Source: a bacterium (GTDB taxonomy: Bacteria; Actinomycetota; Acidimicrobiia; Acidimicrobiales; Bin134). Taken from it: a stretch of 52,116 bases of DNA. Of the stretch, positions 6,206-36,695 are shown one piece after another. The position numbers and the translations under genes are program-made. The DNA lies in the NCBI GenBank assembly GCA_026709815.1, contig JAPOSH010000196.1:1-52116 (forward strand), in the 5' to 3' direction. Under the pieces are notes generated by a model that saw only the letters and a program-made list of their open reading frames with translations, did not search any database and was not told the origin of the DNA. Position 1 is the first letter of the stretch, and each line of letters begins with the position of its first letter.

Positions 6206-6244
6206 GCGCGGCATCTGTTGCGGTTGCCGGGAAAGGAGATTCCC

Positions 6245-8987: not shown

Positions 8988-11423
8988 ATGAGCCGTTTTT
9001 TCAATGCGTACGGAAGTTTCGTGGGCCGCCGCCCCCGAACGGCGTTGGCCCTGGTGGTGGCCATTACCGCGGTGGCCGTGTTCGGCTTCACGCTGACCGC
9101 CGATCTGGCCGACGACCAAGACGCATTTCTGCCCGATGGCAGCGAGCTGGTGGCCGCCATGGACAAGCTGGCTGAGAGCTTCCCCGAGTCGGCTCAGCTC
9201 GAGGCCGTGCAGGTGGTGCTGCGCGGCGATGTGCTGAGCCCTCGCGGCGCAGCGGACTCGATGGCCGCCACCGATGCCGTGGCCTCGCATCTGCAACTGG
9301 CCCGCTACCTGTTCTCGGCCCGCCCGCCGACCTCGCCCGGCCATGTGCTGTCGGCCATGTTCGCCGGTCCCGACGGCGATCCGAGCAGCGTCGACCTGGC
9401 CGCCTTCTCGCAGAGCGACATCGACGCCGCCATGGCCGACGAGGCCAACGCCGAGCTGGTGTCGGTGCTCGACGAGCTGGTGGCGTTGGACGACGACGGC
9501 TCGGTGGCGGGGGGAATCGGCGTGGTGACGGTGAACGCCGCCGGCGACGACGAAGGCCTCGCCGAGGCCCAGGTTTCCGCTGACGACGCGGTGCAGGCGC
9601 TGACGCTGGGCGGGCTGGATTCGGCCCGCACCTTGTCTTCGGGCAAGGTCGAGAAAGAGTCCAGCGACTCGTCGAGATCGTCGCTGGGCCTTCTGATGGC
9701 GCTGGCTTTCGTGGTGATTGCCGTGCTGTTGGTGCTGTTCTACCGGCAGGTCAGCGACGTGCTGTTAAGCCTGGGCGGGCTGGTGCTGACCATCGTCTGG
9801 GCCCTGGGCTTCCAGGGCTTGTTGGGCCCCGACGGGCTGGATCTCATCGGAGCGCCCAGCGTGTTGGGCCAGATGGTGCCCGTGATGCTCATCGGCCTCT
9901 GCGTCGACTACGGGATCCAGGGCACGTCGCGCTACCGCGAGATACGGGCGGAGGGCGCCGAGGCGTCAGAGGGCATCTCGAGGTCGGTGGCCGCCGTCAT
10001 GCTGCCGCTGGGCCTCGCCGGGGTGACCACCATCGTCAGCTTCCTCACCAACCTGTTCGGAGAGATCTCCGGTCTGGCCGATTTCGGCGTGGTCGCCGGG
10101 GTGGGTGTGGCTTGCGGGCTGTTCGTCTTCCTCACCGGGGTCCCCGCGGTGCGAGTGCTGCTTGACCGCCGCAGCCAGGCCCGGGGCAGACAGCCGGTGG
10201 TCCGCCCCATTGAGCAGGCCATTCCAGGAGCGGGACGCCTGGTGGGGGCCATCGGCGCGGCCACGGTGCGCAAGCCTGCGGCCATCTTGGTTCTGGCCGG
10301 TGTGGTCACGCTGTTCTTCGGAGTCATGGCCGCCAGGCTGGGCACCTCGTTCAACTCGACTGATTTTCTGCCCGACGGCACCGAGAGCAAAGAAGACGTG
10401 GTGTTCGTCACCGACAAGCTCGGTGGCAACACCGAACCGGTCACGGTGATCGTCGAAGCGGAGATATCCAATGACCGCACCATCCGCAACCTTCTGGACT
10501 TCGCCTCGGCCATCGAAGACCCCTTGCAGCGCCCCGAGGCGGTGAGCAGCGGCATAACGCAGTCGATGGGCACCTACTACGAGGGCCTGCCGGCGTCGAT
10601 CACCGCCCAGGTGGAAAGCGAAATCGCTCTGAACCGCGCCAATCCCCTGGTGGTGGAGCAGGCAGCCATCGACAGGGCTTTAGACCTAATCCGCTCCCAC
10701 GACCCAGCCAGGTTCGACTCCGTGGTCGCCCTCGGCGCTGACGGCGCGCAGGACCGCACCATCTTGCAGTTCAACGCGCTGACCGGCGACGCCGAGCGCA
10801 CTCGCGATCTGTTCGCCCAGGTGGACGGCTTGTGGTTCGGCGACGACGAGGACATCACGCCGATTGCCGGTGAAATCACATCGCTGGAGGTTTCCGACAG
10901 CCTGACCGACAGTCAGGCCACCTCGATCGCGTTGACCATCGTGGCTGCCCTAGTGGTGCTGGTGCTCTTCTTCTGGTTCACGGAGTTCCGCCCCATGCTG
11001 GCCATCCTCGCGGTGCTGCCCATCTTGTTGGTGCTGGTTTGGGTGCTGGGCACCATGACGCTGCTGGGCTTCGATTACAACGTGGTGACCGCTCTCATCA
11101 CCGCCTTGTCCATCGGAATCGGTGTGGACTACACCATCCACATCACCCACCGTTTCATCGAGGAGCGCGAGCATCGCGGCCGGTCGATCGGCGAGGCCAT
11201 CAACACCACGATGCGCACCACCGGCGGGGCGCTGATCGGCTCCGCGCTGACAACCGCCCTGGGCTTTGCGGTCCTGGTGTTCAGCCCGATCCCCCCAATG
11301 GGCCAGTTCGGCCTGCTCACCGCCATCACCGTCTCGTATTCGCTGATCGCCGCGGTCGTGGTGCTGCCTCCCATGCTGGTGACCTGGGCCGCCTATCACC
11401 ACTGGCGCCGGTCCCAGGGCTGA
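8988..11423 (+). CDS. MMPL-family (RND superfamily) membrane transporter
   Basis: The ATG at 8988 (MSRFFNAYGSFVGRRPRTALALVV...) opens an 811 aa protein. It has two blocks of about 6 TM helices separated by large soluble domains, the typical MMPL architecture. Confidence 0.85.
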   Translation: MSRFFNAYGSFVGRRPRTALALVVAITAVAVFGFTLTADLADDQDAFLPDGSELVAAMDKLAESFPESAQLEAVQVVLRGDVLSPRGAADSMAATDAVASHLQLARYLFSARPPTSPGHVLSAMFAGPDGDPSSVDLAAFSQSDIDAAMADEANAELVSVLDELVALDDDGSVAGGIGVVTVNAAGDDEGLAEAQVSADDAVQALTLGGLDSARTLSSGKVEKESSDSSRSSLGLLMALAFVVIAVLLVLFYRQVSDVLLSLGGLVLTIVWALGFQGLLGPDGLDLIGAPSVLGQMVPVMLIGLCVDYGIQGTSRYREIRAEGAEASEGISRSVAAVMLPLGLAGVTTIVSFLTNLFGEISGLADFGVVAGVGVACGLFVFLTGVPAVRVLLDRRSQARGRQPVVRPIEQAIPGAGRLVGAIGAATVRKPAAILVLAGVVTLFFGVMAARLGTSFNSTDFLPDGTESKEDVVFVTDKLGGNTEPVTVIVEAEISNDRTIRNLLDFASAIEDPLQRPEAVSSGITQSMGTYYEGLPASITAQVESEIALNRANPLVVEQAAIDRALDLIRSHDPARFDSVVALGADGAQDRTILQFNALTGDAERTRDLFAQVDGLWFGDDEDITPIAGEITSLEVSDSLTDSQATSIALTIVAALVVLVLFFWFTEFRPMLAILAVLPILLVLVWVLGTMTLLGFDYNVVTALITALSIGIGVDYTIHITHRFIEEREHRGRSIGEAINTTMRTTGGALIGSALTTALGFAVLVFSPIPPMGQFGLLTAITVSYSLIAAVVVLPPMLVTWAAYHHWRRSQG

Positions 11424-11493
11424 CCCCACGGCAGCGGCGCCGCATTGCCTGTTTCGCAGATCCCCGACCGCTCGGGTGGCGCCGGGGGCGCTT

Positions 11494-12441
11494 TCAGTCG
11501 ATGAGCCCGCACTGGCGGGCTCGGTCGAGGGTCACCTCGAACAGCCGGGTGGTGGCGGCGTCGATCATCATGCCCTTGTAGTTGGCCGCGCCCTGGCCTT
11601 GGGCCTCTGCGGCCCGTACCGCGTCCACCACGCCCCGGGCCTCGGCGATCTCCTCGGGGCTGGGAGCGAACACCCGGTTGGCCACTTCGATCTGGCTGGG
11701 ATGGATGCACCACTTTCCCACCCCGCCCAGCATCGAGAAGGTGGCCGCGCTCTTCTCGTAGCCGCCGGGGTTGGCGATGTTGGCATACGGCCCGTCGATG
11801 GCGTCGATGCCCGCCGCCCGGCAGGCGATGATCATGCGGGTCCGGGCGTAGTGCCACACGTCGCCGGGGTAGCGCAGGGCGGCTTCGCCGTCGGTGACCC
11901 CGATGTGGCCGAGGCGCATCCCCTGGCTGGCCGACAGGTCGCCCACTCCCAGGGTGAGGGCTTCTAGCCGGGGGCTGCACCGGGCGATCTCGTCGGCGGT
12001 CTGGATGGCCTCGACTTCTTCCACCAGGCACTCGATGCCGATGCGGCCCACCTCGAGGCCCAGCTTGAGTTCGAGCTGAGTCAGCATGTCGTCCACGAAC
12101 CACACCTCGCGGGGCCCTTTGATCTTGGGCACCATGATCACGTCGATGTTGGCCCCGGCGCCGGTGACCACCTCGGCGATGTCGTCGTGGCACCACTGGG
12201 TGTGGACGCCGTTGATGCGATACGAGCGGATCTTGCGACCCCAGTCCAGTTCGTTGAGCCCGGCGATGATGTTGCGGCGAGCCCCTACCTTGGCCGCCGG
12301 GGCCACCGCGTCCTCAAGGTCCAAGAACACCATGTCGGCCTCGCTCTGGGCCGCCTTGGCGATCATCTTGGCGGAGTGGCCGGGGGTGGACAGCTCCGAT
12401 CGCCTCATGTGGGTCCGCCTTTCCCGTCGCTCTTGGCTCAT
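11494..12441 (-). CDS. HpcH/HpaI-CitE family CoA-ester lyase (malyl-/citramalyl-CoA lyase-like)
   Basis: RSELSTPGHSAKMIAKAAQSEADMVFLDLEDAVAP...VMVPKI...WCIHPSQIEVAN is the CitE-like/Mcl-like pattern. The start at 12441 overlaps the upstream stop as ATGA. An internal ATG (MRRSEL) is an alternative start. Confidence 0.85.
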   Translation of the reverse strand: MSQERRERRTHMRRSELSTPGHSAKMIAKAAQSEADMVFLDLEDAVAPAAKVGARRNIIAGLNELDWGRKIRSYRINGVHTQWCHDDIAEVVTGAGANIDVIMVPKIKGPREVWFVDDMLTQLELKLGLEVGRIGIECLVEEVEAIQTADEIARCSPRLEALTLGVGDLSASQGMRLGHIGVTDGEAALRYPGDVWHYARTRMIIACRAAGIDAIDGPYANIANPGGYEKSAATFSMLGGVGKWCIHPSQIEVANRVFAPSPEEIAEARGVVDAVRAAEAQGQGAANYKGMMIDAATTRLFEVTLDRARQCGLID

Positions 12442-23902: not shown

Positions 23903-24376
23903 GTGGAGAACGAAGTCTGGCGCTGGCTTTGGACCGGCGCCGCAGTGGTCTTCTCGCTGGCCGAGGTGTTCACCGCCGGGTTTTTCCTGCTCCCCTTCGC
24001 CATTGGAGCAGCGGCCGCCGCGGTTTTGGCCTGGGTGGACGCCCACGTCCTGCTGCAGTGGCTGGCCTTCTTCGCGGTCTCCGCGGTGAGCTTCGTCGTT
24101 TTGCGCCGCTTCGTCCGCCGCCAGAACGATGTAGAGCAGCCCCGGGTGGGCGCGTTCCGCCTCATCGACGCCCAGGGCAGGATCATCGAGCGGGTGGACG
24201 AGGACGAGATGACCGGGATGGTGCGAATCGGCGGTGAGCAGTGGCGGGCCGCCTCCAGCGAGGTCATCGAGGAGGGCACCCGGGTGGTGGTCACCGAGAT
24301 CGACGGCACCCGCCTGGTGGTGGCCCCCATTCCTCGAGAGCAAGTCTCAGAGAACTCCGAGAACACAGAAAGCTAG
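23903..24376 (+). CDS. NfeD-family membrane protein
   Basis: Two or three N-terminal TM helices followed by a C-terminal OB-fold-like region (GMVRIGGEQWRAASSEVIEEGTRVVVTEIDGTRLVV). It sits directly upstream of an SPFH gene, the usual pairing. Confidence 0.8.
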   Translation: MENEVWRWLWTGAAVVFSLAEVFTAGFFLLPFAIGAAAAAVLAWVDAHVLLQWLAFFAVSAVSFVVLRRFVRRQNDVEQPRVGAFRLIDAQGRIIERVDEDEMTGMVRIGGEQWRAASSEVIEEGTRVVVTEIDGTRLVVAPIPREQVSENSENTES

Positions 24377-24385
24377 GTAGAACCC

Positions 24386-25324
24386 ATGGAACCCGTTATC
24401 GCCCTGTTCGCCATCATCGCCCTTGCGCTCATCCTCATCGCCGCGCTGGGAATCCGCATCATCCGGCCCTATGAGCGAGGCCTCATCGAGATGCTGGGCC
24501 GCTACCAGCGCACGGTGGACTCCGGTCTGCGGTGGATCCTCCCGTTCGTCCAGCGCCTGAGCAAGGTGGACATGCGAGAGCGGGTCATCGACGTGCCTCC
24601 CCAGGAGGTCATCACCAAGGACAACGTGGTGGTCACGGTGGACGCGGTGATCTTCTTCGAGGCCACCGACCCGGTGAAGCTCAAGTACAACGTGGGCAAT
24701 TTCCAGCTCGCGGTCACCAAGCTGGCCCAGACCAACCTCCGCAACGTGGTCGGCGACCTCGACCTCGATGCCGCCCTCACCTCCCGAGAGCTGATCAACG
24801 GCAAGCTGCGCCAGATCCTCGACGACGCCACCGACAAATGGGGCACCAGAGTGGTTCGGGTTGAGATCCAGCGCATCGAGCCGCCCCCCGATGTGACCGA
24901 GGCCATGCACCGCCAGATGAAGGCCGAGCGGGACCGGCGGGCCATCGTGACCGAGGCCGAGGGCGAGAAGCGGTCGGCCATCTTGCGCTCGGAGGGCCAA
25001 AAGGAAAGCCAGATCCTCGAGGCCGAGGGCGAGGCCGAGGCCATCAAGCGGGTGGCCGACGCGGAGCGCTACCAGTTCGAGACGGTGGCCCAGGGCGAGT
25101 CCAGAGCCATCGAGCTGCTGTTCAACGCCATACACGCCGGCGATCCCACTCCCGACCTGATTGCGATCCGCTACCTGGAGGCGTTGAAGAACGTGGCTGA
25201 CGGCAACGCCACCAAGATCTTCTTGCCCCTCGACACCAGCGGCCTCACCAACGCCGTGGCCTCCCTGTCCGAGATCGCCCGAGCAGGCCAGGGCTCCCCG
25301 GCCGTCCGGGAGGCTGAGGAGTAG
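24386..25324 (+). CDS. SPFH/Band 7 (stomatin-like) protein
   Basis: N-terminal TM helix, then [21 protein letters not shown]...[13 protein letters not shown]...[10 protein letters not shown] and a coiled-coil region. Confidence 0.9.
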
Positions 25325-25328
25325 CGCG

Positions 25329-25805
25329 CTACAGCTCCGTGGCCGATGCCTCCACCAGATGCTCCAATAGCCAGCCCAGGTACCAGTAGGCCGCCCGGGC
25401 CGCCGATTCGGGATCGGCGCCCTCCGCATCGTCGAACTCGTCGTCCTCGGAGACGTCCAGCCGGGTTCCCAGCACCAGCCGGATGTCGTTGACCGCGCCC
25501 ATCCACGCCGCGAGCTGCTCCCGGTCCAATACCGTGGCCTCGACCAGCTCGGTCACCGCGGCCAAACGAGACCTCCGTTTGGCCACCAGCTCGTCTCGCA
25601 CCATCTCCCGGAACTCGGCCTCGGCTTCGGGATCGTCGGGCCGAGCGGTGGGGAACAGCCGGATCAAGATCTCATCGCCGGGATCGTCGGCCAGCAGTCC
25701 CTCCAAATCGGCGACGATGGCCGCGAGCACCGCCCGCTCCTGCGCCGCCAGCTCCAGGCGAAAGGTGCCGTCCCCATTGGGTCTGATCGGCTGGCGGGGG
25801 GCCAT
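25329..25805 (-). CDS. DUF2017-family protein (ClpS-associated)
   Basis: The ATG at 25805 opens FRLELAAQERAVLAAIVADLEGLL...RLFPTA...EAEAEFREMVRDEL...WMGAVNDIRLVLGTRL, the DUF2017 pattern. The gene lies downstream of clpS, as in other Actinomycetota. Confidence 0.7.
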   Translation of the reverse strand: MAPRQPIRPNGDGTFRLELAAQERAVLAAIVADLEGLLADDPGDEILIRLFPTARPDDPEAEAEFREMVRDELVAKRRSRLAAVTELVEATVLDREQLAAWMGAVNDIRLVLGTRLDVSEDDEFDDAEGADPESAARAAYWYLGWLLEHLVEASATEL

Positions 25806-25866
25806 CAGGCTCTCGCCCTCGACGGGCGCCCAGAGGCCGCAGCGGGCCGGTCGGACGGCGCGGGCA

Positions 25867-26175
25867 TCAGTCGTCGTGCTCCATGGTGGCCCACAGACCG
25901 TGCTCGTGCAGCCGGAAGACATCCATTTCCGCCTTCTCCTTGGGGCCGTCCGACACCACCGCCCGCCCCTTGTGGTGGACGTCCAGCATGAGCCGGGTGG
26001 CCTTCTCCTTGCTGTAGCCGAACAGCTTCTGGAGCACGAAGGTCACATACGACATCAGGTTGATCGGGTCGTTCCACACGATCACCTTCCACGGCCGGTC
26101 GGCCCGAACGTCGACGGCGTCGTCGGACTCCAGTACTTCGCCGGGGGCGATCTCCACCGGAGCGGCGGGGGTCAT
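25867..26175 (-). CDS. clpS: ATP-dependent Clp protease adaptor ClpS
   Basis: [46 protein letters not shown] is the ClpS core. The ATG at 26175 overlaps the ctaA stop as ATGA. Confidence 0.92.
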
Positions 26176-27074
26176 GCCGGTACCGCCGGGGCGAACTCGG
26201 TCTCGGCCCGCATCAGCGGGCCTCTGGCGTTGAGCCAGAAGAACACGGTGGTAACCCACAGCCCGGCGGCGCCCGCGATGTGCGCGCCCACCAGCAAGAC
26301 CGGCACCCCGGTGAAGTACTGCACATAGCCGATCAGCCCTTGGGCCAGGGCCACCACCAGCATGGTCCGGCCCCACCACTGGACCTGCTCGGCGGCGCCC
26401 TGCTGACGCAGCCACCACACCGCACCGGACAACGCCAAAAGCAGCGCCACCACTGTGGCGCCGTGGATTCGGGCTACATCCCTCACCGCCACATCGATGC
26501 GCTCGGCATCCTCGTCGCCACTGTGGGGCCCCGCGCCGGTGACAACGGTGCCGGTGACGACCACCACCGAGGTGAGCGCCGCCACCGCGTTGCCCAGCCA
26601 ATGGGGGCGGCCCGCAGGGCGCCCGTCTTGCTCTGATGCCCGCCATAGCAGCACCACCGCGTTCCACAGCAGCACCATCGACAGCAAGAAGTGGCCGATC
26701 ACCAGCGCCGGGGGCAGTTCGTAGAGCACTACCAGGCCGCCCAGCACAATCTGGGCCAGGACCCCGGCCACCAAACCCCACGACAGCCACACCAGGTCGG
26801 CCCGGCGGGGCACCCGCCAGTGAGACCCCAGCACGGCGGCGATGACGATGGCCGATACCAGTCCGGTGATGAGCCGGTTGATGAACTCGATCATGGCGTG
26901 GGTCTCCAGCGGCGCCACCAGCTGATCGTTGTCGCACGCCGGCCAGTCAGGGCAGCCCAGCCCCGACCCGGTGAGCCGGACTGCGCCCCCGCTCACGATG
27001 ATCAAGGCCAGAAGGGCCAGTGCCCAGACCGTGATCTTGCGATAGGAGGCGGGGGAGACCCGGGGCTGGATCAC
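26172..27074 (-). CDS. ctaA: Heme A synthase (COX15/CtaA family)
   Basis: [19 protein letters not shown]...HAMIEFINR... with paired His-containing helices. The start is uncertain: GTG at 27074 is preferred, since the longest ORF reaches 27209 and would overlap ctaB. Confidence 0.85.
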
Positions 27075-27207
27075 GCCTGGAATTGTACGGGTCGCCCCCG
27101 CAAGACCGTTATCTGGGCCCGGCGATTTTGAAAGTCGACTGCCAGGGCGTCGGCGCCTTCTGGATACCTTGGCCTGCCCAGCGCCGAAACCGTACTCTGT
27201 GCTGGTC

Positions 27208-28110
27208 ATGGGTCTCGCCCAATTGTCTGCTCGCAGCCGCTCTCACACTGCTCGGACCTACATCGCTCTCACCAAGCCTCGCATCATCGAGCTGTTGCTG
27301 GTGACCACGGTGCCCACCATGGTGGTGGCCGACAGGGGCATCCCCTCGGTGTGGCTGATGGCGGCCACCGTGATCGGCGGCACCTTGGCCGCGGGCGGGG
27401 CCAACGCCATCAACATGTACGTCGATCGCGACATCGACCGGCTGATGGATCGCACCAAGCACCGCCCCCTGGTCACCGGGGAGATCGCCCCTCGCCGAGC
27501 GTTGGTATTCGCCATCGTCTTGGAGGCGGTGGCCTTCGCCTGGCTCTGGGGGTTCGTGAACCTGCTCAGCGCGGTGCTGGCGGTATCGGCCACCGCGTTC
27601 TACGTGTTCGTCTACACGTTGTGGCTCAAGCGCACCTCCACCCGCAACATCGTCATCGGCGGGGCCGCGGGCGCCGTCCCGGTCTTGGTGGGCTGGTCGG
27701 CGGTGACCAACAGCTTGGACTGGGCCCCCTTGGTGCTGTTCGGCGTCATCTTCTACTGGACCCCGCCCCATTTTTGGGCCCTGGCCATCCGCTATCGGGA
27801 CGACTACCGGGCGGCGAGCGTGCCGATGCTGCCCGCCGTGGCCAGCACCCGCACCACCGCGGTGCGGATGGTGGGCTACACCGTTGTGCTGTGGGGGCTG
27901 TCGGTGTTGTTCGGCGCGGTCGGCGGGATGGGGCTGGTGTACTTGGTGAGCGCCGCAGTGCTGGGCGCGGTGTTCTTGTTCTACGCCGTCCAAGTGCTGC
28001 GCACCCAGGCCGCGGCATCGGCTATGCGGCTGTTCTCCTACTCCATCACCTACATCACCCTCCTGTTTGCCGCGATGGCAGTCGACCAGGTGGTGCGCAC
28101 CGGTGTTTGA
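27208..28110 (+). CDS. ctaB: Protoheme IX farnesyltransferase (heme O synthase)
   Basis: YIALTKPRIIELLLVTT...GANAINMYVDRDIDRLMDRTKHRPLVTG...YWTPPHFWALA is the UbiA-family CtaB/CyoE signature. The start is 27208 or 27169. Confidence 0.92.
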   Translation: MGLAQLSARSRSHTARTYIALTKPRIIELLLVTTVPTMVVADRGIPSVWLMAATVIGGTLAAGGANAINMYVDRDIDRLMDRTKHRPLVTGEIAPRRALVFAIVLEAVAFAWLWGFVNLLSAVLAVSATAFYVFVYTLWLKRTSTRNIVIGGAAGAVPVLVGWSAVTNSLDWAPLVLFGVIFYWTPPHFWALAIRYRDDYRAASVPMLPAVASTRTTAVRMVGYTVVLWGLSVLFGAVGGMGLVYLVSAAVLGAVFLFYAVQVLRTQAAASAMRLFSYSITYITLLFAAMAVDQVVRTGV

Positions 28111-28218: not shown

Positions 28219-29922
28219 ATGACCCTCACCGAGACTAATCCACCCGCAGAAGCGGTCGCGGCCGGCGACGACTTGGGGCCACCAACAGGCGCAGTCGCGG
28301 CCGGTGACGACTTGAGCCCGGCCACCCGGGCATCGGTCCCCCAGTGGACGCCGCCGACCGGTTTGGCCCGAATTCTGAGTTCCGGCGACTATTTGACCGT
28401 CGGCCGGATGTATGTGGCGTTCTCCCTGCTCCTATCGGGGCTGGCCCTGGCCCTGGGGGTGTTGATCGGCATTGAGAAGGCCGATATCGACGGGGGCTTC
28501 GGAGTTTTCGCCAACTCCAACGAGCTCTTCCAGATGTTCGGCCTGTACCGGATCACGCTGATCCTGTGCGGGCTGGTTCCGCTGTTCTTAGGCCTGGCCA
28601 CCGTTGTGATCCCCCGGCAGCTCGGCGCTGGTTCGCTGGCCTTCCCCCGAGCCGCCGCCGCCGCGTTCTGGACTTGGCTGGTGGGATCCATCGCCCACAT
28701 CGCGGCCACCTTCTCCTACGGCGGTCTAGGCTCGATCGAGGCCGGCGCCGCCCGAGGCCAGTCGGTGGAGCTCACCGTTTTGTCGCTGGGCATGATCGGA
28801 CTGGGCTTGCTGGTGGGATCGGGTGTCGTCTTCACCACCCTGGTGACCCAGCGCCCCCCGGGCATGGATCTGCTCCAAATGCCGGCCTTCTCGTGGTCGA
28901 TGCTGGTGGCTGCCGGGGTGTGGCTGTTCTCTTTGCCGGTGCTGCTGGCCAACCTGACCATCTCCTGGGTGGATATGCGGGGGTCCGACGCCGTGGGCTT
29001 CGGCGCCGCCGAGGTGCCGTTCGAGATGGTGGCCTGGGCATTCGACGCCCCCCAGGTGTACGCATGGACCATCCCGCTTTTGGGCATCATCGCTGAGGTC
29101 TTCGCCGCCGCCCATCGCAGTGTCCCCAAACTGTTCGAGCCCATGGCCTTCATCGTGGGGGCCTTCGGGTTCTTGTCGTTCGGGGCCTGGGCGCAGAGCT
29201 TCTTCGACAGCGCCGATCCGCGGGCTGCCGATGCCCACGTCGTGACCGACGAGGTGCTGTTCACCGTGTTCGCCCTGGCGATCGCCCTGGCAGTGCTGGC
29301 CTACGGCGGATGGCTGGCGTTCAACGCCTACGCCGCCGGGCGGCGCCCCGAGATCACCCCGCAGTTCGCCTTGGCAGTCGTCTCCGGGGCTTTGCTGACC
29401 TTGGCCGCGGTGGCCGGCGTGCTGCGGGTGGCCGAGCCGGCGCTGGGGGTGCTGCGGGAGGCCGACGGCGATATCTGGCGGGGGTTTTTCGACGCCATGG
29501 ACGATCTGGAGGGCTCCAGCCTGGTCACCGGGATGATGAGCTTTGCGGTGCTGGGCGGGCTGCTGGCCGCGGTGGCCGGCCTCTTCCACTGGGCGCCGCG
29601 GCTGCTGGGCCGCCCCCTCAGCGCCCCTCTGGGGTTCCTGTCGGTGCTGCCGCTGGCCGGCGGGGCGATCCTCATCGGGGCGACCGATGCGCTGAGCGGT
29701 TTCTTCGACCAGCCGGCCCGGCCTTATGAAGCCGGGAACCCGCCGTATGGGCCCGGCCACTTCGATGAGATCGACGCCTTGGGCTTCGTGGAGGCCATGA
29801 ATGTGATCGGACTCATCGGCGCTATCGCCGTTTTGGGCGGTTTGGCCCTGGTGGCTGCGAACGCCGCCCGCGGCCTTGTCGGCATGCCGACGGCCGAGTC
29901 TGACCCGGGGGAGGACTCCTGA
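28219..29922 (+). CDS. Heme-copper oxidase subunit I-like membrane protein lacking all canonical heme and CuB ligands
   Basis: 567 aa, about 12 TM helices. It aligns by eye with the bona fide CtaD at 32771: PRQLGAGSLAFPRAAAAAFW vs LQIGARDVAFPRLNAFSFW, WAFDAPQVY vs WIFGHPEVY, GAWAQSFF vs GVWAHHMF, LVTGMMSFAVLGG...GLFHWAPR vs VVAHFHYVIFGG...GLHFWWPK. All ligand histidines are substituted (see findings). Confidence 0.8.
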   Translation: MTLTETNPPAEAVAAGDDLGPPTGAVAAGDDLSPATRASVPQWTPPTGLARILSSGDYLTVGRMYVAFSLLLSGLALALGVLIGIEKADIDGGFGVFANSNELFQMFGLYRITLILCGLVPLFLGLATVVIPRQLGAGSLAFPRAAAAAFWTWLVGSIAHIAATFSYGGLGSIEAGAARGQSVELTVLSLGMIGLGLLVGSGVVFTTLVTQRPPGMDLLQMPAFSWSMLVAAGVWLFSLPVLLANLTISWVDMRGSDAVGFGAAEVPFEMVAWAFDAPQVYAWTIPLLGIIAEVFAAAHRSVPKLFEPMAFIVGAFGFLSFGAWAQSFFDSADPRAADAHVVTDEVLFTVFALAIALAVLAYGGWLAFNAYAAGRRPEITPQFALAVVSGALLTLAAVAGVLRVAEPALGVLREADGDIWRGFFDAMDDLEGSSLVTGMMSFAVLGGLLAAVAGLFHWAPRLLGRPLSAPLGFLSVLPLAGGAILIGATDALSGFFDQPARPYEAGNPPYGPGHFDEIDALGFVEAMNVIGLIGAIAVLGGLALVAANAARGLVGMPTAESDPGEDS

Positions 29923-29983: not shown

Positions 29984-30580
29984 ATGGCCGACATCGTAGT
30001 GGGAGCGCCCCTGGCCGCACCCCCTTCTCGCCCACGCACTCTGTTGGTGGGCACGGTGTTCGGGACCGCGGCGTCGCTCATGTACTTCGCCGCGTTGCTC
30101 GGCGTGTACCTGCGGGAGCGGGCCGATGCGCTGTCCGGGGGCGGGGATTGGATCCCGTCGAGCGCCGACATTCAGCTGGCCCAGCCCACCGTGGCGGCGT
30201 GGACCATGCTCATGTCGGCAGTCACCATGCAGTGGGCGGTATACGCCATCGCCCGCGACGACCGGGCCCACGCCCTCATGGCCACCGCGCTGACCGCGCT
30301 GTTCGGCCTGTCGGTGGTGGTCATGACCTCGTTCCAGTACACCGAGATGGGCTTGGCGGCCGACGAGTCGGTGGCGGCCGTGTTGATCTACGCCATCTCG
30401 GGGTCGCACTTGGCCATGATCGCCGTCGGCCTGGTGTTCCTCTTGCTCATGGCGTTCCGGGCTCTGGCCAGCCAGTACAGCAGCCGTCAGACCGACGGGT
30501 TCGTGGCCGCGTCCATCTATTGGTATGCCGTTGTATTCGTCTATGTCGTCATCTGGACGGCGATTTTCGTGCTGAAGTAG
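29984..30580 (+). CDS. Heme-copper oxidase subunit III-like membrane protein (divergent)
   Basis: The ATG at 29984 follows GGGGAGGG. 198 aa, 5 TM helices. IYAISGSHLAMIAVG vs FYALTGFHGAHVTIG, and SIYWYAVVFVYVVIW vs GLYWHFVDIVWIVIF, in the canonical CtaE at 34806. Confidence 0.7.
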   Translation: MADIVVGAPLAAPPSRPRTLLVGTVFGTAASLMYFAALLGVYLRERADALSGGGDWIPSSADIQLAQPTVAAWTMLMSAVTMQWAVYAIARDDRAHALMATALTALFGLSVVVMTSFQYTEMGLAADESVAAVLIYAISGSHLAMIAVGLVFLLLMAFRALASQYSSRQTDGFVAASIYWYAVVFVYVVIWTAIFVLK

Positions 30581-30637
30581 GCGCTGCGTGTTCACCGTTG
30601 AGCTGATCCCCCGCGATCCAAGCCAGGCAGGCTTTTA

Positions 30638-31474
30638 GTGCTCACCCCGGGATTCCGCTTGTTCTTCGGCTTTGCCCTCGCCGCGGTGGCCTCGGCTGCC
30701 GTCTACGGGGTAGCCAGCGGCAGCGCAGGCGAGACCGAGTATTTCGCGGTGCTCAACGTGGAGACCTGGGTGGGCGTGCTCAGCCTGGGCTACAAGGGGG
30801 GCATCGGCGATCATGTCGGGTACGTGGCGCTGATGGCGTTCGCGGTGCTGTCGGCGTTGGTGGCGCTGTTCTTGGTGGCCTTCCGGGACGCGGACGCCGA
30901 GTCGGTGGGCGAACTGACCGGAGACGGCCGGATCCCCGAGCCCCAAGCCGACCTCGAGGCCAACTACTGGCCGGCGGTGGCCGCCTTCGGACTGGGGGCG
31001 ATGATCGTGGGCCTTGCCACCCACGCCACCATCTTCGTGATCGGCCTGGTGATCGTGGGCGCGGCGATTTTCGAGTGGATGCTGGCCGCTTGGGCCGACC
31101 GGGCCACTGCCGATCCGGTGGTCAATCGCAACCTGCGCAATCGCATCATGAGACCGGTGGAGTACCCGGTCACCGCCGCCCTCGGGGTGGCGGTGCTGGT
31201 TTTGGCCCTGTCGCGGGTGTTTTTGACCGTGTCCAAGTTCAGCGCCGTGATCGTGGCCGGTGTGGTGGCCACGGTGATTTTCCTCGTCGCGGTGGTATTC
31301 GCGGTGGCGCCCAAGATCAGCCGGTCGGCTATAGCCGCAACGGTGGCCCTGATGTGTGCCGGCGTCTTGATCGCGGGGGTGGTGACCGCGGCCGTGGGCT
31401 CGCGTGATTTCCACCACAAAGGACCGGTCTCAGAGCACGGTGAACATGCCGACGACCATGGAGGGTCCGAGTGA
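30638..31474 (+). CDS. Polytopic membrane protein of unknown function with a subunit III N-terminal-like two-helix module and a His/acidic tail
   Basis: GTG start, 278 aa, about 8 TM helices. NYWPAVAAFGLGAMIVGLATHATIFVIGLVIVGAAIFEWML aligns without gaps to SYWPIVLSGGILLVGYGLIYNLWLVAAGMVLLVGAMYGWIL in the CtaD C-terminal extension. The C-terminus is HHKGPVSEHGEHADDHGGSE. Confidence 0.6.
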   Translation: MLTPGFRLFFGFALAAVASAAVYGVASGSAGETEYFAVLNVETWVGVLSLGYKGGIGDHVGYVALMAFAVLSALVALFLVAFRDADAESVGELTGDGRIPEPQADLEANYWPAVAAFGLGAMIVGLATHATIFVIGLVIVGAAIFEWMLAAWADRATADPVVNRNLRNRIMRPVEYPVTAALGVAVLVLALSRVFLTVSKFSAVIVAGVVATVIFLVAVVFAVAPKISRSAIAATVALMCAGVLIAGVVTAAVGSRDFHHKGPVSEHGEHADDHGGSE

Positions 31475-31490
31475 TGGTCGAGACATCGAG

Positions 31491-32768
31491 ATGCGGCGTC
31501 CGATGAGCAGTCGGCCGAGAGCGCTGGTATGGCTGTCGAGCCTGTTGGTGATTGCCGGCACGGTGGCATTGATCGTGGTGGCCATCGTGGTCGACGACAA
31601 TCATCCGCTGTCCACCCTGTCTCCGGTCGGGCGCCAGGGCCGCGACATCGCCGCGCTCATCAACCCCATCTTCATCGTGGCCGGCGTGGTGTTCTTCCTG
31701 GTCCAGGGAGCGGTGCTGGCGTTGTGGTGGCGGTACCGGGTCTCTGGATCCGATGACGGCGATGGCGAGTTCGGGTACTACGAAGACGAGGAGTTCCCCG
31801 AGCAGGTCCACGGCAACAACCGCCTTGAGATCGCCTGGACCATTGTGCCGACCGTGCTGCTGGCCGTCATCTCGGTGTTCACCCTGGTGGCGCTGTTCGC
31901 CCTCGACGACGTGGAGGCCTCTGACGAGGAGCTGGCTGTCACGGTGATCGGCCAGCAGTGGTGGTGGGAGTATCAGTACCACTTGGACGGCGACACGTCC
32001 ACCCCGCCTGATTTCGTGACCGCCAACGAGCTGGTGATCCCCGTCGGAGTGGATGTGCCGCTCGACATCAAATCGCGCGACGTAATACACGCGTTCTGGA
32101 TACCCAAGCTCAACGGGAAGAGGGACGCGGTGCCGGGCCGTTCCCACGATTGGGTCATCCAATCGAACAAGACCGGCACCTTCCGGGGCCAGTGCACCGA
32201 GTTCTGCGGTTTGTCCCACGGCTATATGAAAATGGTGGCCGTGGTGCTCACCGCCGACGAGTTCGCCGAATGGCGGGACAATCAGATGAAGCCGGCCGAC
32301 GCTCCCGAGGAAGGCACAGCCGCTGCTGCCGGTTGGGAGAGCTTCAACCAGCAGTGTGCCAACTGCCATGTGGTCAACGGGCTCACCTCGGCTGCCACTC
32401 GAGGCGGCGACCCCTCCTCGCCGCCCGACGACTGGAGCATTTACGGAGCGTTCAACGGCGACAATGCCGGTCCGGTCCTCACCGAGGATTTGGTGGCCGG
32501 CGCCGCTCCCAACCTGACCCACCTCATGACTCGGAGCACGTTCGCCGGGTCGATATTCGACCTCTACCTCAATGCCGGAGCACACGTTCCCTACTTGGAT
32601 CTGTCCGAGCGGGCAACGCTCAATCGAGGCGAGTTGGAGTCCTGGATCTACAACGCCCCCGAGCGCAAGCCGGCCGCCGCCGACGAACTTCGGGGCATGC
32701 CCGCCCGTACCGGTCTGAGCCCCGTCGACATCGACAACATCGTTGCCTTCCTGTCCACCCTTGACTGA
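31491..32768 (+). CDS. ctaC: Cytochrome c oxidase subunit II with fused C-terminal cytochrome c domain (caa3-type)
   Basis: Two N-terminal TM helices, CuA site CTEFCGLSHGYM, then the heme c motif CANCH. The likely ATG is at 31491 (MRRPMSSRPRAL...). Confidence 0.92.
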   Translation: MRRPMSSRPRALVWLSSLLVIAGTVALIVVAIVVDDNHPLSTLSPVGRQGRDIAALINPIFIVAGVVFFLVQGAVLALWWRYRVSGSDDGDGEFGYYEDEEFPEQVHGNNRLEIAWTIVPTVLLAVISVFTLVALFALDDVEASDEELAVTVIGQQWWWEYQYHLDGDTSTPPDFVTANELVIPVGVDVPLDIKSRDVIHAFWIPKLNGKRDAVPGRSHDWVIQSNKTGTFRGQCTEFCGLSHGYMKMVAVVLTADEFAEWRDNQMKPADAPEEGTAAAAGWESFNQQCANCHVVNGLTSAATRGGDPSSPPDDWSIYGAFNGDNAGPVLTEDLVAGAAPNLTHLMTRSTFAGSIFDLYLNAGAHVPYLDLSERATLNRGELESWIYNAPERKPAAADELRGMPARTGLSPVDIDNIVAFLSTLD

Positions 32769-32770
32769 TT

Positions 32771-34801
32771 GTGATTGAGATGACCGTCGCCGATCGCACG
32801 ATCACCGCCCCCGAGGAGACTCTGGCGCTGCCCGCGGGTCCGGCCATCGCCCGCCGGCCCCTCGGCGTCTTCAGCCGCCCCCAGGGCAGCGAGGGCTGGC
32901 AGAGCTGGCTGTTCACCGTCGATCACAAGCGCATCGGCATCATGTACGGCGCCGCCGCGCTGTTCTTCTTCCTCGTCGGCGGCGCCGAAGCCCTGTTCAT
33001 CCGCCTCCAGCTCGCCGTTCCCAACGGCTCGGTCATCGGCGCCGGCACCTACAACGGCGTGTTCACCATGCACGGCGTGACCATGATCTTCCTCGTGGCC
33101 ATGCCCATGGCGGCCGCATTCGCCAACTACCTGCTTCCCCTTCAGATCGGGGCCCGAGACGTGGCCTTTCCCCGTCTCAACGCCTTCAGCTTCTGGTGCT
33201 TTTTGGCCGGCGGTCTGCTGCTCACCTCCTCAATGCTCATCGGGGGCTGGTTCCAGAACGTCCCCGATGGGGGTTGGTTCAACTACGCCCCCAACAGCGG
33301 TCTGCTCTTCTCCCCCCATAAGGGCATCGACTTCTACGCGGTGGGATTGCAGATAACCGGCATCGCCTCGCTGGTCAGCTCCATCAATCTGATCGTGACC
33401 GTGCTGAACATGCGGACACGGGGGATGAGCCTGTTCCGCATGCCGGTGCTCACCTGGATGCTGCTCATCACTCAGTTCCTTTTGCTGTTCGCCATCCCGG
33501 TCATCACCGTGGCCCTGTTCTTGTTGATGTTCGACCGGCTTTGGGATGCCAACTTCTTCAACGTGGCCGCCGGGGCCGATCCCCTCCTGTGGCAGCACCT
33601 GTTCTGGATTTTCGGCCACCCCGAGGTTTACATCCTGGTGCTGCCCGCATTCGGAATCGTCTCAGAGATCATTCCCACGTTCTCCCGCAAGCCGATCTTC
33701 GGCTACAACTTCATGGTCGCCTCCGGCATCGCCATCGGCTTCATGGGCTGGGGAGTGTGGGCCCATCACATGTTCACCTCCGGCGTGGGACCGCTGGCGG
33801 TGGCGGCGTTCTCGGTGTCCACCATGTTCATCGCCGTTCCCACCGGGGTGAAGGTTCTCAACTGGCTGGCCACCATGTACGGGGGCCGGCTGCGCTTCAC
33901 CACCCCGATGCTGTATGCCGTGGGCGTGGTGTCGATGTTCACCATCGGAGGGCTTTCGGGGGTGACGCATTCCATCGCCCCTTCCGACACCCAGCAGACC
34001 GACACCTATTACGTTGTGGCCCACTTCCACTATGTGATCTTCGGCGGGATCATCCTCGGCTTGTTCGGGGGCCTCCACTTCTGGTGGCCCAAGATATTCG
34101 GCTACATGCTGGACGAGGGCTGGGGCAAGGCGGCCTTTTGGGTCATCCTCATCGGCTTCAATTTGACGTTCGGCCCCATGCACATTCTCGGCTTGCAGGG
34201 GATGTCCCGGCGCATTGCCACCTATCGGGCCGATGAGGGCTTCGCCTTCTGGAACATGGTCGCCACCGTCGGGGCTTTCGTGATCGCCGCCGGTGTGGCC
34301 ATGCTGTTGTGGAACATCTACAAGAGCACCCGCGATTGGAAGCGGGCGGGGCGGCCCGACGTGGGGCCCGACCCGTGGGACGCCCGGAGCCTGGAGTGGA
34401 TGACCGCATCGCCTGCGCCCGAGCACAACTTCGACCGGGAGATCGAAGTCGAGGGCCAAGATGAGTTCTGGCATCGCAAGTACGGCCGAGACGAGAGCGG
34501 GCGGGTGGTGCGAGCCGCTACTGCCTCTGAGATCGCCCACGACGGCAGCAACACCAAAGTTCACCTGCCGTCGCCGTCGTACTGGCCCATCGTCTTGAGC
34601 GGGGGCATCCTGTTGGTGGGCTACGGCTTGATCTACAACCTGTGGCTGGTAGCGGCGGGAATGGTGCTGTTGGTGGGCGCCATGTACGGCTGGATCCTGG
34701 AGCCGGCCGACGACCCTGAGGCCGCCGGCCACCACGGGGAGCACGAAGACGGCCGCGATGACGGCGGCCGCGATGACGAGGAGGCTGTGACCGTTGGCTG
34801 A
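32771..34801 (+). CDS. ctaD: Cytochrome c oxidase subunit I with a C-terminal two-helix extension
   Basis: All canonical motifs are present: FTMHG, WIFGHPEVY, WAHHMF, VVAHFHYV. The extra C-terminal segment HLPSPSYWPIV... resembles the N-terminus of subunit III. The tail is acidic and His-rich. Confidence 0.95.
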   Translation: MIEMTVADRTITAPEETLALPAGPAIARRPLGVFSRPQGSEGWQSWLFTVDHKRIGIMYGAAALFFFLVGGAEALFIRLQLAVPNGSVIGAGTYNGVFTMHGVTMIFLVAMPMAAAFANYLLPLQIGARDVAFPRLNAFSFWCFLAGGLLLTSSMLIGGWFQNVPDGGWFNYAPNSGLLFSPHKGIDFYAVGLQITGIASLVSSINLIVTVLNMRTRGMSLFRMPVLTWMLLITQFLLLFAIPVITVALFLLMFDRLWDANFFNVAAGADPLLWQHLFWIFGHPEVYILVLPAFGIVSEIIPTFSRKPIFGYNFMVASGIAIGFMGWGVWAHHMFTSGVGPLAVAAFSVSTMFIAVPTGVKVLNWLATMYGGRLRFTTPMLYAVGVVSMFTIGGLSGVTHSIAPSDTQQTDTYYVVAHFHYVIFGGIILGLFGGLHFWWPKIFGYMLDEGWGKAAFWVILIGFNLTFGPMHILGLQGMSRRIATYRADEGFAFWNMVATVGAFVIAAGVAMLLWNIYKSTRDWKRAGRPDVGPDPWDARSLEWMTASPAPEHNFDREIEVEGQDEFWHRKYGRDESGRVVRAATASEIAHDGSNTKVHLPSPSYWPIVLSGGILLVGYGLIYNLWLVAAGMVLLVGAMYGWILEPADDPEAAGHHGEHEDGRDDGGRDDEEAVTVG

Positions 34802-34805
34802 CACC

Positions 34806-35417
34806 ATGGCCGCCGAGGCCGCCACTCATTCCGCGCCCCGCGAGGAGCACCGCACCAGCACCGGCATCTCCAACGAGAAGCTGGCCATGTGGGTGTTCCT
34901 GGGCTCGGAGTGCCTGCTGTTCGGCGGGCTCATCTCCACCTACATGTTCAACAAGGGCCGCATCGGCCCCGGCGATATCGGCCCCGCCGACGTATTCGAC
35001 ATCCCCTTCACCTCGGTCAGCTCGTTCGTGCTTTTGATGAGCTCGCTGACCATGGTGTTCGCGGTGTCGTCCATCGTCCGGGGCGATCTGCGGGGCAACC
35101 GGATCTGGCTGGCCACCACCGCTGCGCTGGGGGCCACCTTCGTGGCCGGGCAGGTGTACGAGTTCACCGCCTTCTACAGCGAGGGGCTCGGCTTCACCAC
35201 CAACCTGTTCGGCTCCTCCTTCTACGCGCTCACCGGTTTCCACGGCGCCCACGTCACCATCGGCATCATCATGCTCATGTCGCTGTTCGTGATGTCGCTG
35301 CGGGGCAACCTCGGGCCCGAGCGAGCCGAGAAGGTGGAGATCATCGGCTTGTACTGGCACTTCGTCGACATCGTCTGGATTGTGATCTTCACGATCGTGT
35401 ACCTCTTCCCGCAGTAG
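34806..35417 (+). CDS. ctaE: Cytochrome c oxidase subunit III (5-TM type)
   Basis: FYALTGFHGAHVTIG and GLYWHFVDIVW motifs. The start is ATG at 34806, or TTG at 34794 overlapping the ctaD stop. Confidence 0.9.
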   Translation: MAAEAATHSAPREEHRTSTGISNEKLAMWVFLGSECLLFGGLISTYMFNKGRIGPGDIGPADVFDIPFTSVSSFVLLMSSLTMVFAVSSIVRGDLRGNRIWLATTAALGATFVAGQVYEFTAFYSEGLGFTTNLFGSSFYALTGFHGAHVTIGIIMLMSLFVMSLRGNLGPERAEKVEIIGLYWHFVDIVWIVIFTIVYLFPQ

Positions 35418-35783: not shown

Positions 35784-36695
35784 ATGGCTTTTGCCGCCGA
35801 CACCGACATCTGGCGGTACCAGCCCCACGCAGAGGTGTGGGTCATATTGGCAGCCGCTGTCGCCATGGCTTGGTACACCGCCCGGGTCATCGCTCCCAAA
35901 GCTGCGCCCGGCGGACGGGCTCCGTTCGCCCGCCGCCACAAGCTGGCCTTCATCGGGGCGATGGCGGCGTTATGGGTGGCCAGCGACTGGCCGATGCACG
36001 ACATCTCCGAGGAGTACCTGTACTCGGTTCACATGATCCAGCACCTGCTCATCACCTTTGTGGTGCCCCCGCTGCTGTGGGCGGCGATTCCCGAGTGGCT
36101 GGCTCGGCTGATGTTCAGCGACGACGGCAGTGTGGGCGTGTGGGTGCGCCGGCTGGCTCGGCCGGTGGCGGCCGGGTTGGCGTTCAACTTCATGGTGGCG
36201 GTGAGCCACATCCCCTGGGTGGTCAACACCTCGGTGGAAAACGGCGCCCTGCACTACTTCGTGCATCTGCTGCTGGTGGCCTCGGCCATGGCGATGTGGC
36301 TGCCGGTGTGCGGCCCGGTTCCCGAGCTGCGCATGGGCGCTCCCGGCAAGATGGTCTACCTGTTCTTGATGTCGGTGGTGCCCACCGTGCCCGGCGGGTT
36401 CTTGACCTTCGCTCAGGGCGCGGTGTACAGCGCCTATGACCACCAGGTGCGGCTGTGGGGCATCGGCGTGCAGGCCGATCAGCAGGCCGCCGGGCTCATC
36501 ATGAAGCTGGTGGGCGGCATGTATCTCTGGGCGTGGATCGGAGTGCTGTTCTTCCGCTGGTCTGGCGCCCAACAGCAGGCCAACACCCGGATGCGGGTCG
36601 TGACCGCCGCGGCGCAGGGGCCAGCGGCCTCCGATGCCCGAGTGCTGGCCCCGTCTCAGTCCAACGGCGCTGGCTCGTCCAACGGATCGCAATGA
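35784..36695 (+). CDS. ctaG: Cytochrome c oxidase assembly factor CtaG (Caa3_CtaG family)
   Basis: Polytopic protein. WPMHDISEEYLYSVHMIQHLLITFVVPPLL matches the Bacillus-type CtaG family. Confidence 0.8.
   Translation: MAFAADTDIWRYQPHAEVWVILAAAVAMAWYTARVIAPKAAPGGRAPFARRHKLAFIGAMAALWVASDWPMHDISEEYLYSVHMIQHLLITFVVPPLLWAAIPEWLARLMFSDDGSVGVWVRRLARPVAAGLAFNFMVAVSHIPWVVNTSVENGALHYFVHLLLVASAMAMWLPVCGPVPELRMGAPGKMVYLFLMSVVPTVPGGFLTFAQGAVYSAYDHQVRLWGIGVQADQQAAGLIMKLVGGMYLWAWIGVLFFRWSGAQQQANTRMRVVTAAAQGPAASDARVLAPSQSNGAGSSNGSQ

Follow-up and report, generated by a model that had tools for sequence, protein, structure and literature searches.

A non-catalytic paralog of the oxidase core encoded upstream of ctaC in the caa3 oxidase locus of an Acidimicrobiia bacterium

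The DNA analyzed here is a stretch of 52,116 nucleotides (the window; contig JAPOSH010000196.1 of GenBank assembly GCA_026709815.1) from a bacterium of the class Acidimicrobiia, and it carries the genes of a caa3-type cytochrome oxidase. Three genes on the same strand as ctaB and ctaC, i.e., open reading frames (ORFs) ORF1, ORF2 and ORF3, are inserted between these two with gaps of approximately 60–110 bp. Near-identical proteins are recorded under Candidatus Poriferisocius, a sponge-associated Acidimicrobiia lineage, in or near which the window is thereby placed. In agreement with a preliminary description of this DNA, the trio encodes a paralog of the oxidase core that is non-catalytic and is located just upstream of ctaC; it consists of a shadow subunit I (I'), a shadow subunit III (III') and a protein that carries the equivalent of the first two helices of subunit III (IV'). 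Within the heme-copper oxidase superfamily, the trio seems to represent a non-catalytic offshoot, hitherto undescribed, that comprises a whole three-subunit core.

Shadow subunits I, III and IV

The genes of the trio, and the two features of ORF3 discussed below, are as follows (TM, transmembrane).
28219..29922, plus strand: ORF1, shadow subunit I (I'), 567 amino acids, Pfam COX1 match
29984..30580, plus strand: ORF2, shadow subunit III (III'), 198 amino acids, five hydrophobic helices (5 TM), Pfam COX3 match
30638..31474, plus strand: ORF3, shadow subunit IV (IV'), CtaF-like, 278 amino acids, approximately 7 TM
30956..31087, plus strand: two-helix module of ORF3, residues 107–150, 'NYWP...EWML', counterpart of CtaD helices 13–14 and CtaF helices 3–4
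31406..31471, plus strand: His/Asp/Glu-rich C-terminal tail of ORF3, 22 residues, FHHKGPVSEHGEHADDHGGSE, occupying the site of the cupredoxin domain of many orthologs

ORF1 matches the Pfam profile PF00115 (COX1) with an E value of 9.2e-33 (114.2 bits, above the cut-off of 34.8) and is 27% identical to the CtaD of the window, but reaches only 130 bits with TIGR02891, far under the cut-off of 670. None of the six positions that hold the heme and CuB ligands is occupied by histidine; the residues found instead are Y, A, Q, S, M and S. The proton-channel positions are likewise altered, D132 being replaced by serine, E286 by glutamine, and K362 by Y or A, according to the alignment used, both of them non-basic, and only the Tyr288 position is kept among the catalytic residues checked. 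With the ligands and the D- and K-channel residues gone, the ORF1 product is, as judged from its sequence, not a functional subunit I of a heme-copper oxidase, and its earlier designation as a dead subunit I holds. The AlphaFold2 (AF2) model is confident, with a predicted local distance difference test score (pLDDT) of 87 and a predicted template modeling score (pTM) of 0.89, and superposes by Foldseek on A-family subunits I with TM-scores (template modeling scores) of 0.70–0.79 over more than 500 columns; in this model, the full 12-helix COX1 fold is retained. At the C-terminus of ORF1 (window 29800–29922), the motif 'DDPWxGHTLEW...SPPPxGNF' is missing; it is present in the consensus of a 66-sequence alignment of shadow subunits I, and also in functional subunit I.

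The assignment of ORF2 as a five-helix homolog of subunit III is borne out by profile and pairwise searches. PF00510 (COX3) is matched with an E value of 5.5e-13 (49.8 bits, cut-off 23.8), with residues 31–195 aligned to positions 87–254 of the 258 in the profile, and BLASTP against the CtaE of the window gives an E value of 8e-15 with 25% identity over 173 residues. The top NCBIfam model is aa3_CtaE_Actin (NF050119; 6.7e-21, 75.4 bits, under the cut-off of 190 bits), and the best matches among solved structures are mycobacterial CtaE. As read from the sequence, 'TGFHGAHV' and 'YWHFVD' in CtaE correspond to 'SGSHLAMI' and 'YWYAVV' in ORF2, so that the motif changes quoted in the preliminary description are present. 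Hence, the motifs of functional subunit III (GFHGxHV, YWHFVD and the acidic residue of helix III) are missing in ORF2, the glutamate of 'VYEFT' being lost. The replacements are fixed in 117 orthologs, and the family has conserved motifs of its own, e.g., S.VTMQWAVY.IARDDR and LMAFRAL.GQ.

On the basis of sequence comparisons, the most fitting description of ORF3 is that of an actinobacterial CtaF (subunit IV, PF12270) homolog extended by three helices. The CtaF-like N-terminal four-helix domain is followed by the three additional helices and the His/Asp/Glu-rich tail. The ORF3 protein of the window has no Pfam or NCBIfam match by itself (none with PF12270 at E ≤ 0.1; cut-off 26.9 bits), and the relationship emerges from its relatives: 10 of 25 orthologs match PF12270 at E ≤ 1 (best 2e-5), and the long variant P0403 reaches 31.1 bits over profile positions 5–124 of 132. 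An exhaustive search with the ORF3 profile yielded 1071 cluster representatives, including a subgroup of long forms of 345–400 residues. Among ten long forms examined, PF12270 covers nearly its whole profile length at the N-terminus in four, and a C-terminal Cupredoxin_1 domain is found in six. Short and long forms are colinear (hhalign probability 100%), except for an insertion of approximately 28 residues in the first loop of the short form, SLGWKGGVGDHVGY, which lies within ORF3 residues 29–62 and includes the nearly invariant His59. The insertion is conserved in the short, cupredoxin-less forms and missing from most long forms.

The long-form profile matches the solved CtaF chains of Corynebacterium glutamicum (7q21_F, 5e-6) and Mycobacterium smegmatis (6adq_H, 0.0019), whereas the profile of the short ORF3 family has no match among Protein Data Bank (PDB) sequences, such that CtaF is reached by the long-variant profile only. 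Positions 79–123 of the long forms, corresponding to the third and fourth helices, align marginally with residues 8–57 of COX3 (7o37_c and 1m56_C; E 0.04–0.4). The C-terminal domain of the long forms resembles blue-copper proteins (6kol_A, 4.5e-8; auracyanin A, 2.4e-7). In the ORF3 of the window, neither the Pfam scan nor the alignment reveals a cupredoxin domain with His, Cys, His and Met ligands.

The two-helix module of ORF3 is related to the C-terminal extension of the functional CtaD. The best BLASTP segment of ORF3 against CtaD pairs residues 83–149 with CtaD residues 578–643 (E 0.004), and 'NYWP...EWML' aligns without gaps to 'SYWP...GWIL' with 12 of 41 positions identical, in line with the approximately 12 identities counted previously. 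When the ORF3 family is aligned by hhalign to 108 CtaD C-terminal extensions, the probability is 95.7% and the E value 1.1e-8 over ORF3 residues 107–166, and the likeness is thus beyond chance. Since CtaF is structurally equivalent to helices 1–2 of subunit III (PMC8361435), the module can be linked to the first two helices of canonical subunit III. The long-form matches to CtaF and, marginally, to COX3 agree with the earlier proposal that ORF3 carries the helix 1–2 module of subunit III; as a description of the protein this is incomplete, and ORF3 is better named a CtaF homolog with three extra helices and, often, a cupredoxin domain.

The possibility that the three C-terminal TM helices, alone or with the cupredoxin domain, represent a degenerate subunit II, with which the shadow set would be whole, was considered and rejected, given an hhalign probability of 0.4–0.5% against the CtaC alignment. 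The cupredoxin of the long variants resembles type-1 copper proteins, and none of the 60 matches listed is a subunit II chain. This agrees with the absence of a duplicated CuA-type subunit II from the trio noted in the preliminary description (ORF3 against CtaC, 0.5%).

The functional oxidase genes, gene order and selection

The trio is embedded among the following genes.
26172..27209, minus strand: ctaA, heme A synthase, divergent from ctaB; its ortholog in locus L166 is PF02628 (COX15-CtaA)
27169..28110, plus strand: ctaB, heme O synthase, directly 5' of ORF1; its ortholog is PF01040 (UbiA) in L081, L083 and L166
31404 or approximately 31491 to 32768, plus strand: ctaC, subunit II of the functional set, fused to a cytochrome c domain; Pfam COX2, COX2_TM and Cytochrom_C
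32771..34801, plus strand: ctaD, subunit I of the functional set, extended C-terminally by two helices; Pfam COX1, 2.3e-154
34529..34702, plus strand: C-terminal extension of CtaD, residues 587–644; PF12270, 7.8e-7, profile positions 69–125
34794..35417, plus strand: ctaE, functional 5-TM subunit III; Pfam COX3, 1.5e-20; top solved-structure match QoxC, 141 bits
35450..35776, plus strand: ctaF, Bacillus-type subunit IV (COX4_pro); Pfam PF03626, 3.7e-10
35784..36695, plus strand: ctaG, caa3 assembly factor; Pfam Caa3_CtaG, 8.1e-39
3' of ctaG: serS

The ctaC product exceeds the cut-off of TIGR02866, and that of ctaD scores 684 bits with TIGR02891, over the cut-off, with all ligands present. The alignment of the QoxB model to CtaD runs through residue 642, i.e., across the C-terminal helices, which together with the PF12270 match indicates that the caa3 CtaD carries the equivalent of subunit III helices 1–2 in fused form, as in Qox and Cyo. 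The longest frame of ctaC has a GTG start at 31404 and overlaps the end of ORF3 by approximately 70 nucleotides; a start at the Met codon near 31491 gives no overlap. The GC content at third codon positions of ORF1, ORF2 and ORF3 is 0.86–0.88 and matches that of the neighboring genes. A search for promoters and terminators between the trio and ctaC returned none in intergenic DNA, all terminator-like matches being located within coding sequence, which is weak evidence. In the public annotation, ORF1 is a 'cbb3-type cytochrome c oxidase subunit I', ORF2 a 'cytochrome c oxidase subunit 3' and ORF3 a 'hypothetical protein'.

A scan of genomes, one per species, returned 255 with a relative of ORF3, of which 80 were retained; these are Acidimicrobiia wherever the class or a lower rank is named, a few being titled only 'bacterium' or 'Actinobacteria bacterium'. 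Metagenomes were scanned with long variants (11-sequence alignment), and direct look-ups of loci were added. Wherever the locus is long enough, the order ctaA (minus strand), ctaB, ORF1, ORF2, ORF3, ctaC, ctaD, ctaE, ctaF, ctaG is kept, and the position of ctaA is the same across L001–L080. Shadow subunits I and III precede ORF3 in all 114 loci with at least 2.7 kb of upstream sequence, and ctaC follows it in all 130 loci whose downstream flank measures 1.5 kb or more. The trio-bearing loci derive from sponge, marine, freshwater and soil Acidimicrobiia, and the gene order is identical in metagenome contigs from soil, freshwater and marine samples. Joint occurrence and synteny of the three genes in related genomes, on which the preliminary description had staked its proposal, was thus found in every sampled locus with sufficient flanking sequence.

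All three shadow genes are under purifying selection. Relative to close relatives, the ratio of nonsynonymous to synonymous substitution rates (dN/dS) is 0.15–0.24 for ORF1, 0.13–0.22 for ORF2 and 0.10–0.12 for ORF3, i.e., in the same range as for ctaB, ctaC, ctaD, ctaE, ctaG and serS, and the frames are unbroken in those genomic and metagenomic loci that were inspected. ORF1 is 33–41% identical where CtaD keeps 68–76%, and therefore evolves faster. Taken together, the dN/dS values, the invariant residues specific to each family and the confident fold of ORF1 indicate functional genes that encode folded proteins rather than decaying copies. The terms 'degenerate' and 'drifted' applied to these genes previously are accordingly misleading, as they denote three families with conserved motifs of their own and dN/dS values like those of the catalytic genes.

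Other features of these loci were recorded along the way. In L068 (positions 9805–12044), and probably also in L078, an insert of approximately 2 kb separates ctaC from ctaD; in L068, it holds an ORF resembling DNA methyltransferases (SPPF motif) and an ORF of 192 residues, and looks like a restriction-modification cassette within the cta operon. Beside ctaA in the window (25329–26200, minus strand), a DUF2017 gene (Pfam 9e-37) is followed just 3', on the minus strand, by an ORF whose C-terminal part is putatively ClpS-like as judged by eye; in L081, L083 and L166, the cta cluster likewise has the ClpS-DUF2017 pair at its side. Window positions 23903–25324 encode an NfeD-like membrane protein and then an SPFH/Band 7 protein, a typical paired operon, and positions 6218–6916 a bacterial protein homologous to the GPP34 family of eukaryotic Golgi phosphoproteins (Pfam PF05719, 7e-46).

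Graded cofactor loss and origin of the trio

The ligand positions were surveyed in 119 distinct shadow subunit I sequences. No ligand histidine is kept at any of the six positions in 105 of these, a single one is kept in nine, and both low-spin heme ligands are kept in five; a CuB ligand histidine does not occur in any of the 119. The former active site is instead rich in glutamine, which is found at the position of the second CuB histidine in 116 of 119 sequences, at that of the first in 72 of 119, and at the E286 position in 95 of 115.

A similar gradation is seen in ORF3. The Cys-His-Met copper motif is present inside the cupredoxin domain in 7 of 50 long representatives, and the upstream His ligand is also kept in all six that were aligned; most cupredoxin domains of the family have lost their copper ligands. 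For four loci with an intact type-1 copper site, DNA sequence was available (L082, L165, L166 and L167), and in each of them both low-spin heme histidines are retained by the shadow subunit I; that of L082 additionally retains the high-spin heme histidine, and that of L166 retains D132 and the Arg pair that binds the heme propionates. The low-spin heme pair is also kept, in the absence of a cupredoxin, in L088, L122 and L126. In L082, a separate cupredoxin gene of 128 residues (Cupredoxin_1/Copper-bind; 3683–4069, minus strand) is located between ORF3 and ctaC. The graded retention of ligands implies that the family spans forms that may still bind heme and copper and forms, like those of the window, that cannot. 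The loss of catalysis proposed earlier thus applies to the ligand-free ORF1 of the window, but cofactor loss is graded rather than uniform across the family.

With regard to origin, the trio and the functional genes rank their relatives differently. ORF1 scores best with actinobacterial CtaD (89 bits, compared with 75 for QoxB and 62 for bo3), ORF2 with mycobacterial CtaE (64 bits, compared with 33 for CyoC and 22 for QoxC), and the ORF3 family with actinobacterial CtaF. The functional CtaD, on the other hand, scores best with Bacillus subtilis QoxB (553 bits, compared with approximately 505 for actinobacterial CtaD), and the functional CtaE with QoxC (141 bits, compared with 95–108 for actinobacterial CtaE). 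The shadow set may thus be a silenced descendant of an actinobacterial aa3 oxidase that resides beside a Bacillus-type caa3 operon, although at such divergence score rankings are only suggestive of origin. The ancient tandem duplication suggested in the preliminary description stands with respect to the existence of a paralogous copy; given the score rankings, a local duplication of ctaD and ctaE is not the sole, and perhaps not the best, explanation for it.

Possible roles and relation to known oxidases

We favor, at roughly even odds (probability about 0.5), a role for the trio as a non-catalytic pseudo-oxidase subcomplex that is accessory to the caa3 oxidase. I' would contribute a 12-helix subunit I fold devoid of heme and copper, III' a five-helix subunit III, and IV', as a subunit of the CtaF type, the counterparts of subunit III helices 1–2, and the three would assemble via the conserved interfaces between subunits I, III and IV. 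The trio would be co-transcribed with ctaCDEFG and would serve the caa3 oxidase or its supercomplex in a structural capacity, either as a stabilizing scaffold or as an adaptor that docks the oxidase to the electron-donating bcc complex, and in the organism of the window it would perform no redox chemistry. A precedent for docking is provided by M. smegmatis, where CtaE and CtaF mediate the contact in the III2-IV supercomplex (PMC8361435).

Several points weigh against such an accessory subcomplex. We infer the mutual assembly of the trio and its contact with the caa3 oxidase from sequence relationships, and operon structure is read from gene spacing only. The AF2 monomer model of ORF3 is poor (25-sequence alignment, pLDDT 62, pTM 0.45), and its best Foldseek match in the PDB has an E value of 3, which is noise. 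The genomes were chosen by the presence of ORF3, and the counts say nothing about Acidimicrobiia that possess a caa3 oxidase without the trio. The conserved glutamines at the former CuB and E286 positions, finally, hint at a specific polar site, for which a pure scaffold has no need.

These glutamines bear most directly on an independent non-redox role, in which the emptied subunit I scaffold would be reused to conduct or transport protons, ions or a small molecule along a path lined in part by the glutamine-rich former active site. The frequency of glutamine at these three sites argues that a polar interior has been selected for, and not just any hydrophobic filler, but the canonical D- and K-channel residues are gone, no member of the superfamily is known to transport, and the strict linkage to ctaC–ctaG argues for a function tied to the oxidase; we therefore consider a channel improbable. 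Another alternative is an assembly platform that serves biogenesis only and is no lasting partner, where I', III' and IV', as a look-alike of subunit I, would transiently hold CtaC, CtaE or the delivery factors for heme A and copper while CtaD is loaded with its cofactors. The trio is placed between ctaA/ctaB, for heme O and heme A synthesis, and the structural genes, the cluster includes ctaG, and the periplasm-side His/Asp/Glu-rich tail of ORF3, or the cupredoxin in relatives, could handle copper. Known oxidase assembly factors, however, include no paralog of subunits I, III or IV (review PMC9145763), the copper ligands are gone from most cupredoxins of the family, and three full-size membrane subunits that are conserved jointly look more like a stable complex, which makes a platform of this kind unlikely, if less so than a channel.

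In some relatives, the module retains the low-spin heme site together with a domain for type-1 copper and may relay electrons. Residual electron transfer from type-1 copper via the low-spin heme to the caa3 oxidase is plausible where heme and copper ligands are retained, considering that the low-spin heme pair accompanies the copper motif of ORF3 at all four such loci with DNA sequence, and that the cupredoxin resembles auracyanin, an electron carrier. However, the great majority of shadow subunit I orthologs (105 of 119) are wholly ligand-free, and a relay is inapplicable to the window because ORF1 has no ligand His and ORF3 no cupredoxin, so for this organism we hold it to be very improbable. 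Least credible of all is that the genes are functionless duplicates, pseudogenes in the making: the hallmark catalytic motifs are lost and ORF1 evolves faster than CtaD, but intact frames, dN/dS values of 0.10–0.24, invariant family residues, a confident fold and the conserved placement at the locus led us to reject decay. A more far-reaching version of the accessory subcomplex deserves mention as a tentative possibility that we consider less likely than not. The trio would then constitute a hitherto unrecognized three-subunit pseudo-oxidase branch of the superfamily, maybe derived from the ancestral actinobacterial aa3 oxidase, and would persist as the obligatory structural half of an oxidase/pseudo-oxidase supercomplex, e.g., one that keeps the bcc-docking surface of CtaE/CtaF and leaves the chemistry to a Bacillus-type caa3 enzyme; the stages of cofactor loss would lead from type-1 copper and low-spin heme to heme only and on to nothing.

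The trio corresponds in subunit composition to the actinobacterial aa3 core CtaD-CtaE-CtaF of the bcc-aa3 supercomplexes of M. smegmatis and C. glutamicum (PDB codes 6ADQ, 6HWH and 7Q21). It differs from that core in the absence of heme and copper ligands, proton channels and a partner subunit II; ORF1 and ORF2 fall far under the NCBIfam cut-offs of the actinobacterial aa3 families, and ORF3 adds three helices and a loop insertion to CtaF, to which relatives add a blue-copper domain. Placement of the first two helices of subunit III on another polypeptide is shared with Escherichia coli bo3 (CyoB/CyoC), B. subtilis QoxB/QoxC and the I+III fusion of Thermus caa3; the carrier here is the C-terminal extension of CtaD in the functional set and ORF3 in the shadow set. 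Those enzymes are active oxidases, whereas one copy in the present operon is cofactor-free. The C-terminal domain of long ORF3 forms is like auracyanin and other membrane-anchored type-1 copper proteins, and some retain the His-Cys-His-Met site, but unlike auracyanin it forms the end of a CtaF-like membrane protein of seven helices, its ligands are mostly lost, and it is missing in the ORF3 of the window.

Catalytically dead paralogs are kept as structural subunits in mitochondrial bc1, where the core proteins are derived from peptidases. The trio resembles them as a paralog in a respiratory system that has lost catalysis and is retained under selection; however, the bc1 case concerns a single soluble-domain subunit in a characterized complex, and the present one a whole three-subunit membrane core whose partner complex we infer.

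Within the superfamily, the families eNOR, bNOR, sNOR, gNOR and nNOR (NOR, nitric oxide reductase) are heme-copper oxidoreductases with differing active-site residues that have been assigned to NO reduction (Murali et al. 2024, PMC11214002). The shadow set is, like these, a divergent member with an altered active site and no O2 reduction, but as compared by description, its subunit I differs from theirs in that most members are devoid of every metal ligand. Every described heme-copper oxidase family that we found in the literature binds hemes together with copper or iron, and the broadest recent survey of the superfamily (PMC11214002) does not mention a cofactor-free member. No cofactor-less subunit I paralog and no such operon in Acidimicrobiia was found described in the literature searched, which did not extend to most subscription journals, so that this absence is not proof.

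Sponges, oceans, lakes, soils and activated sludge harbor abundant Acidimicrobiia, and the current names of ORF1 and ORF2 can inflate the number of terminal oxidases in metabolic reconstructions. The trio also adds three proteins to be expected when the caa3 oxidase of Acidimicrobiia, or a supercomplex that contains it, is purified or modeled. With a class-wide, selected and cofactor-free I/III/IV core, the heme-copper oxidase superfamily would gain its first clear branch of pseudoenzymes; it would mean that the oxidase scaffold has a function apart from O2 or NO chemistry, and the family would offer a natural series of intermediates for how a respiratory enzyme becomes a structural subunit.

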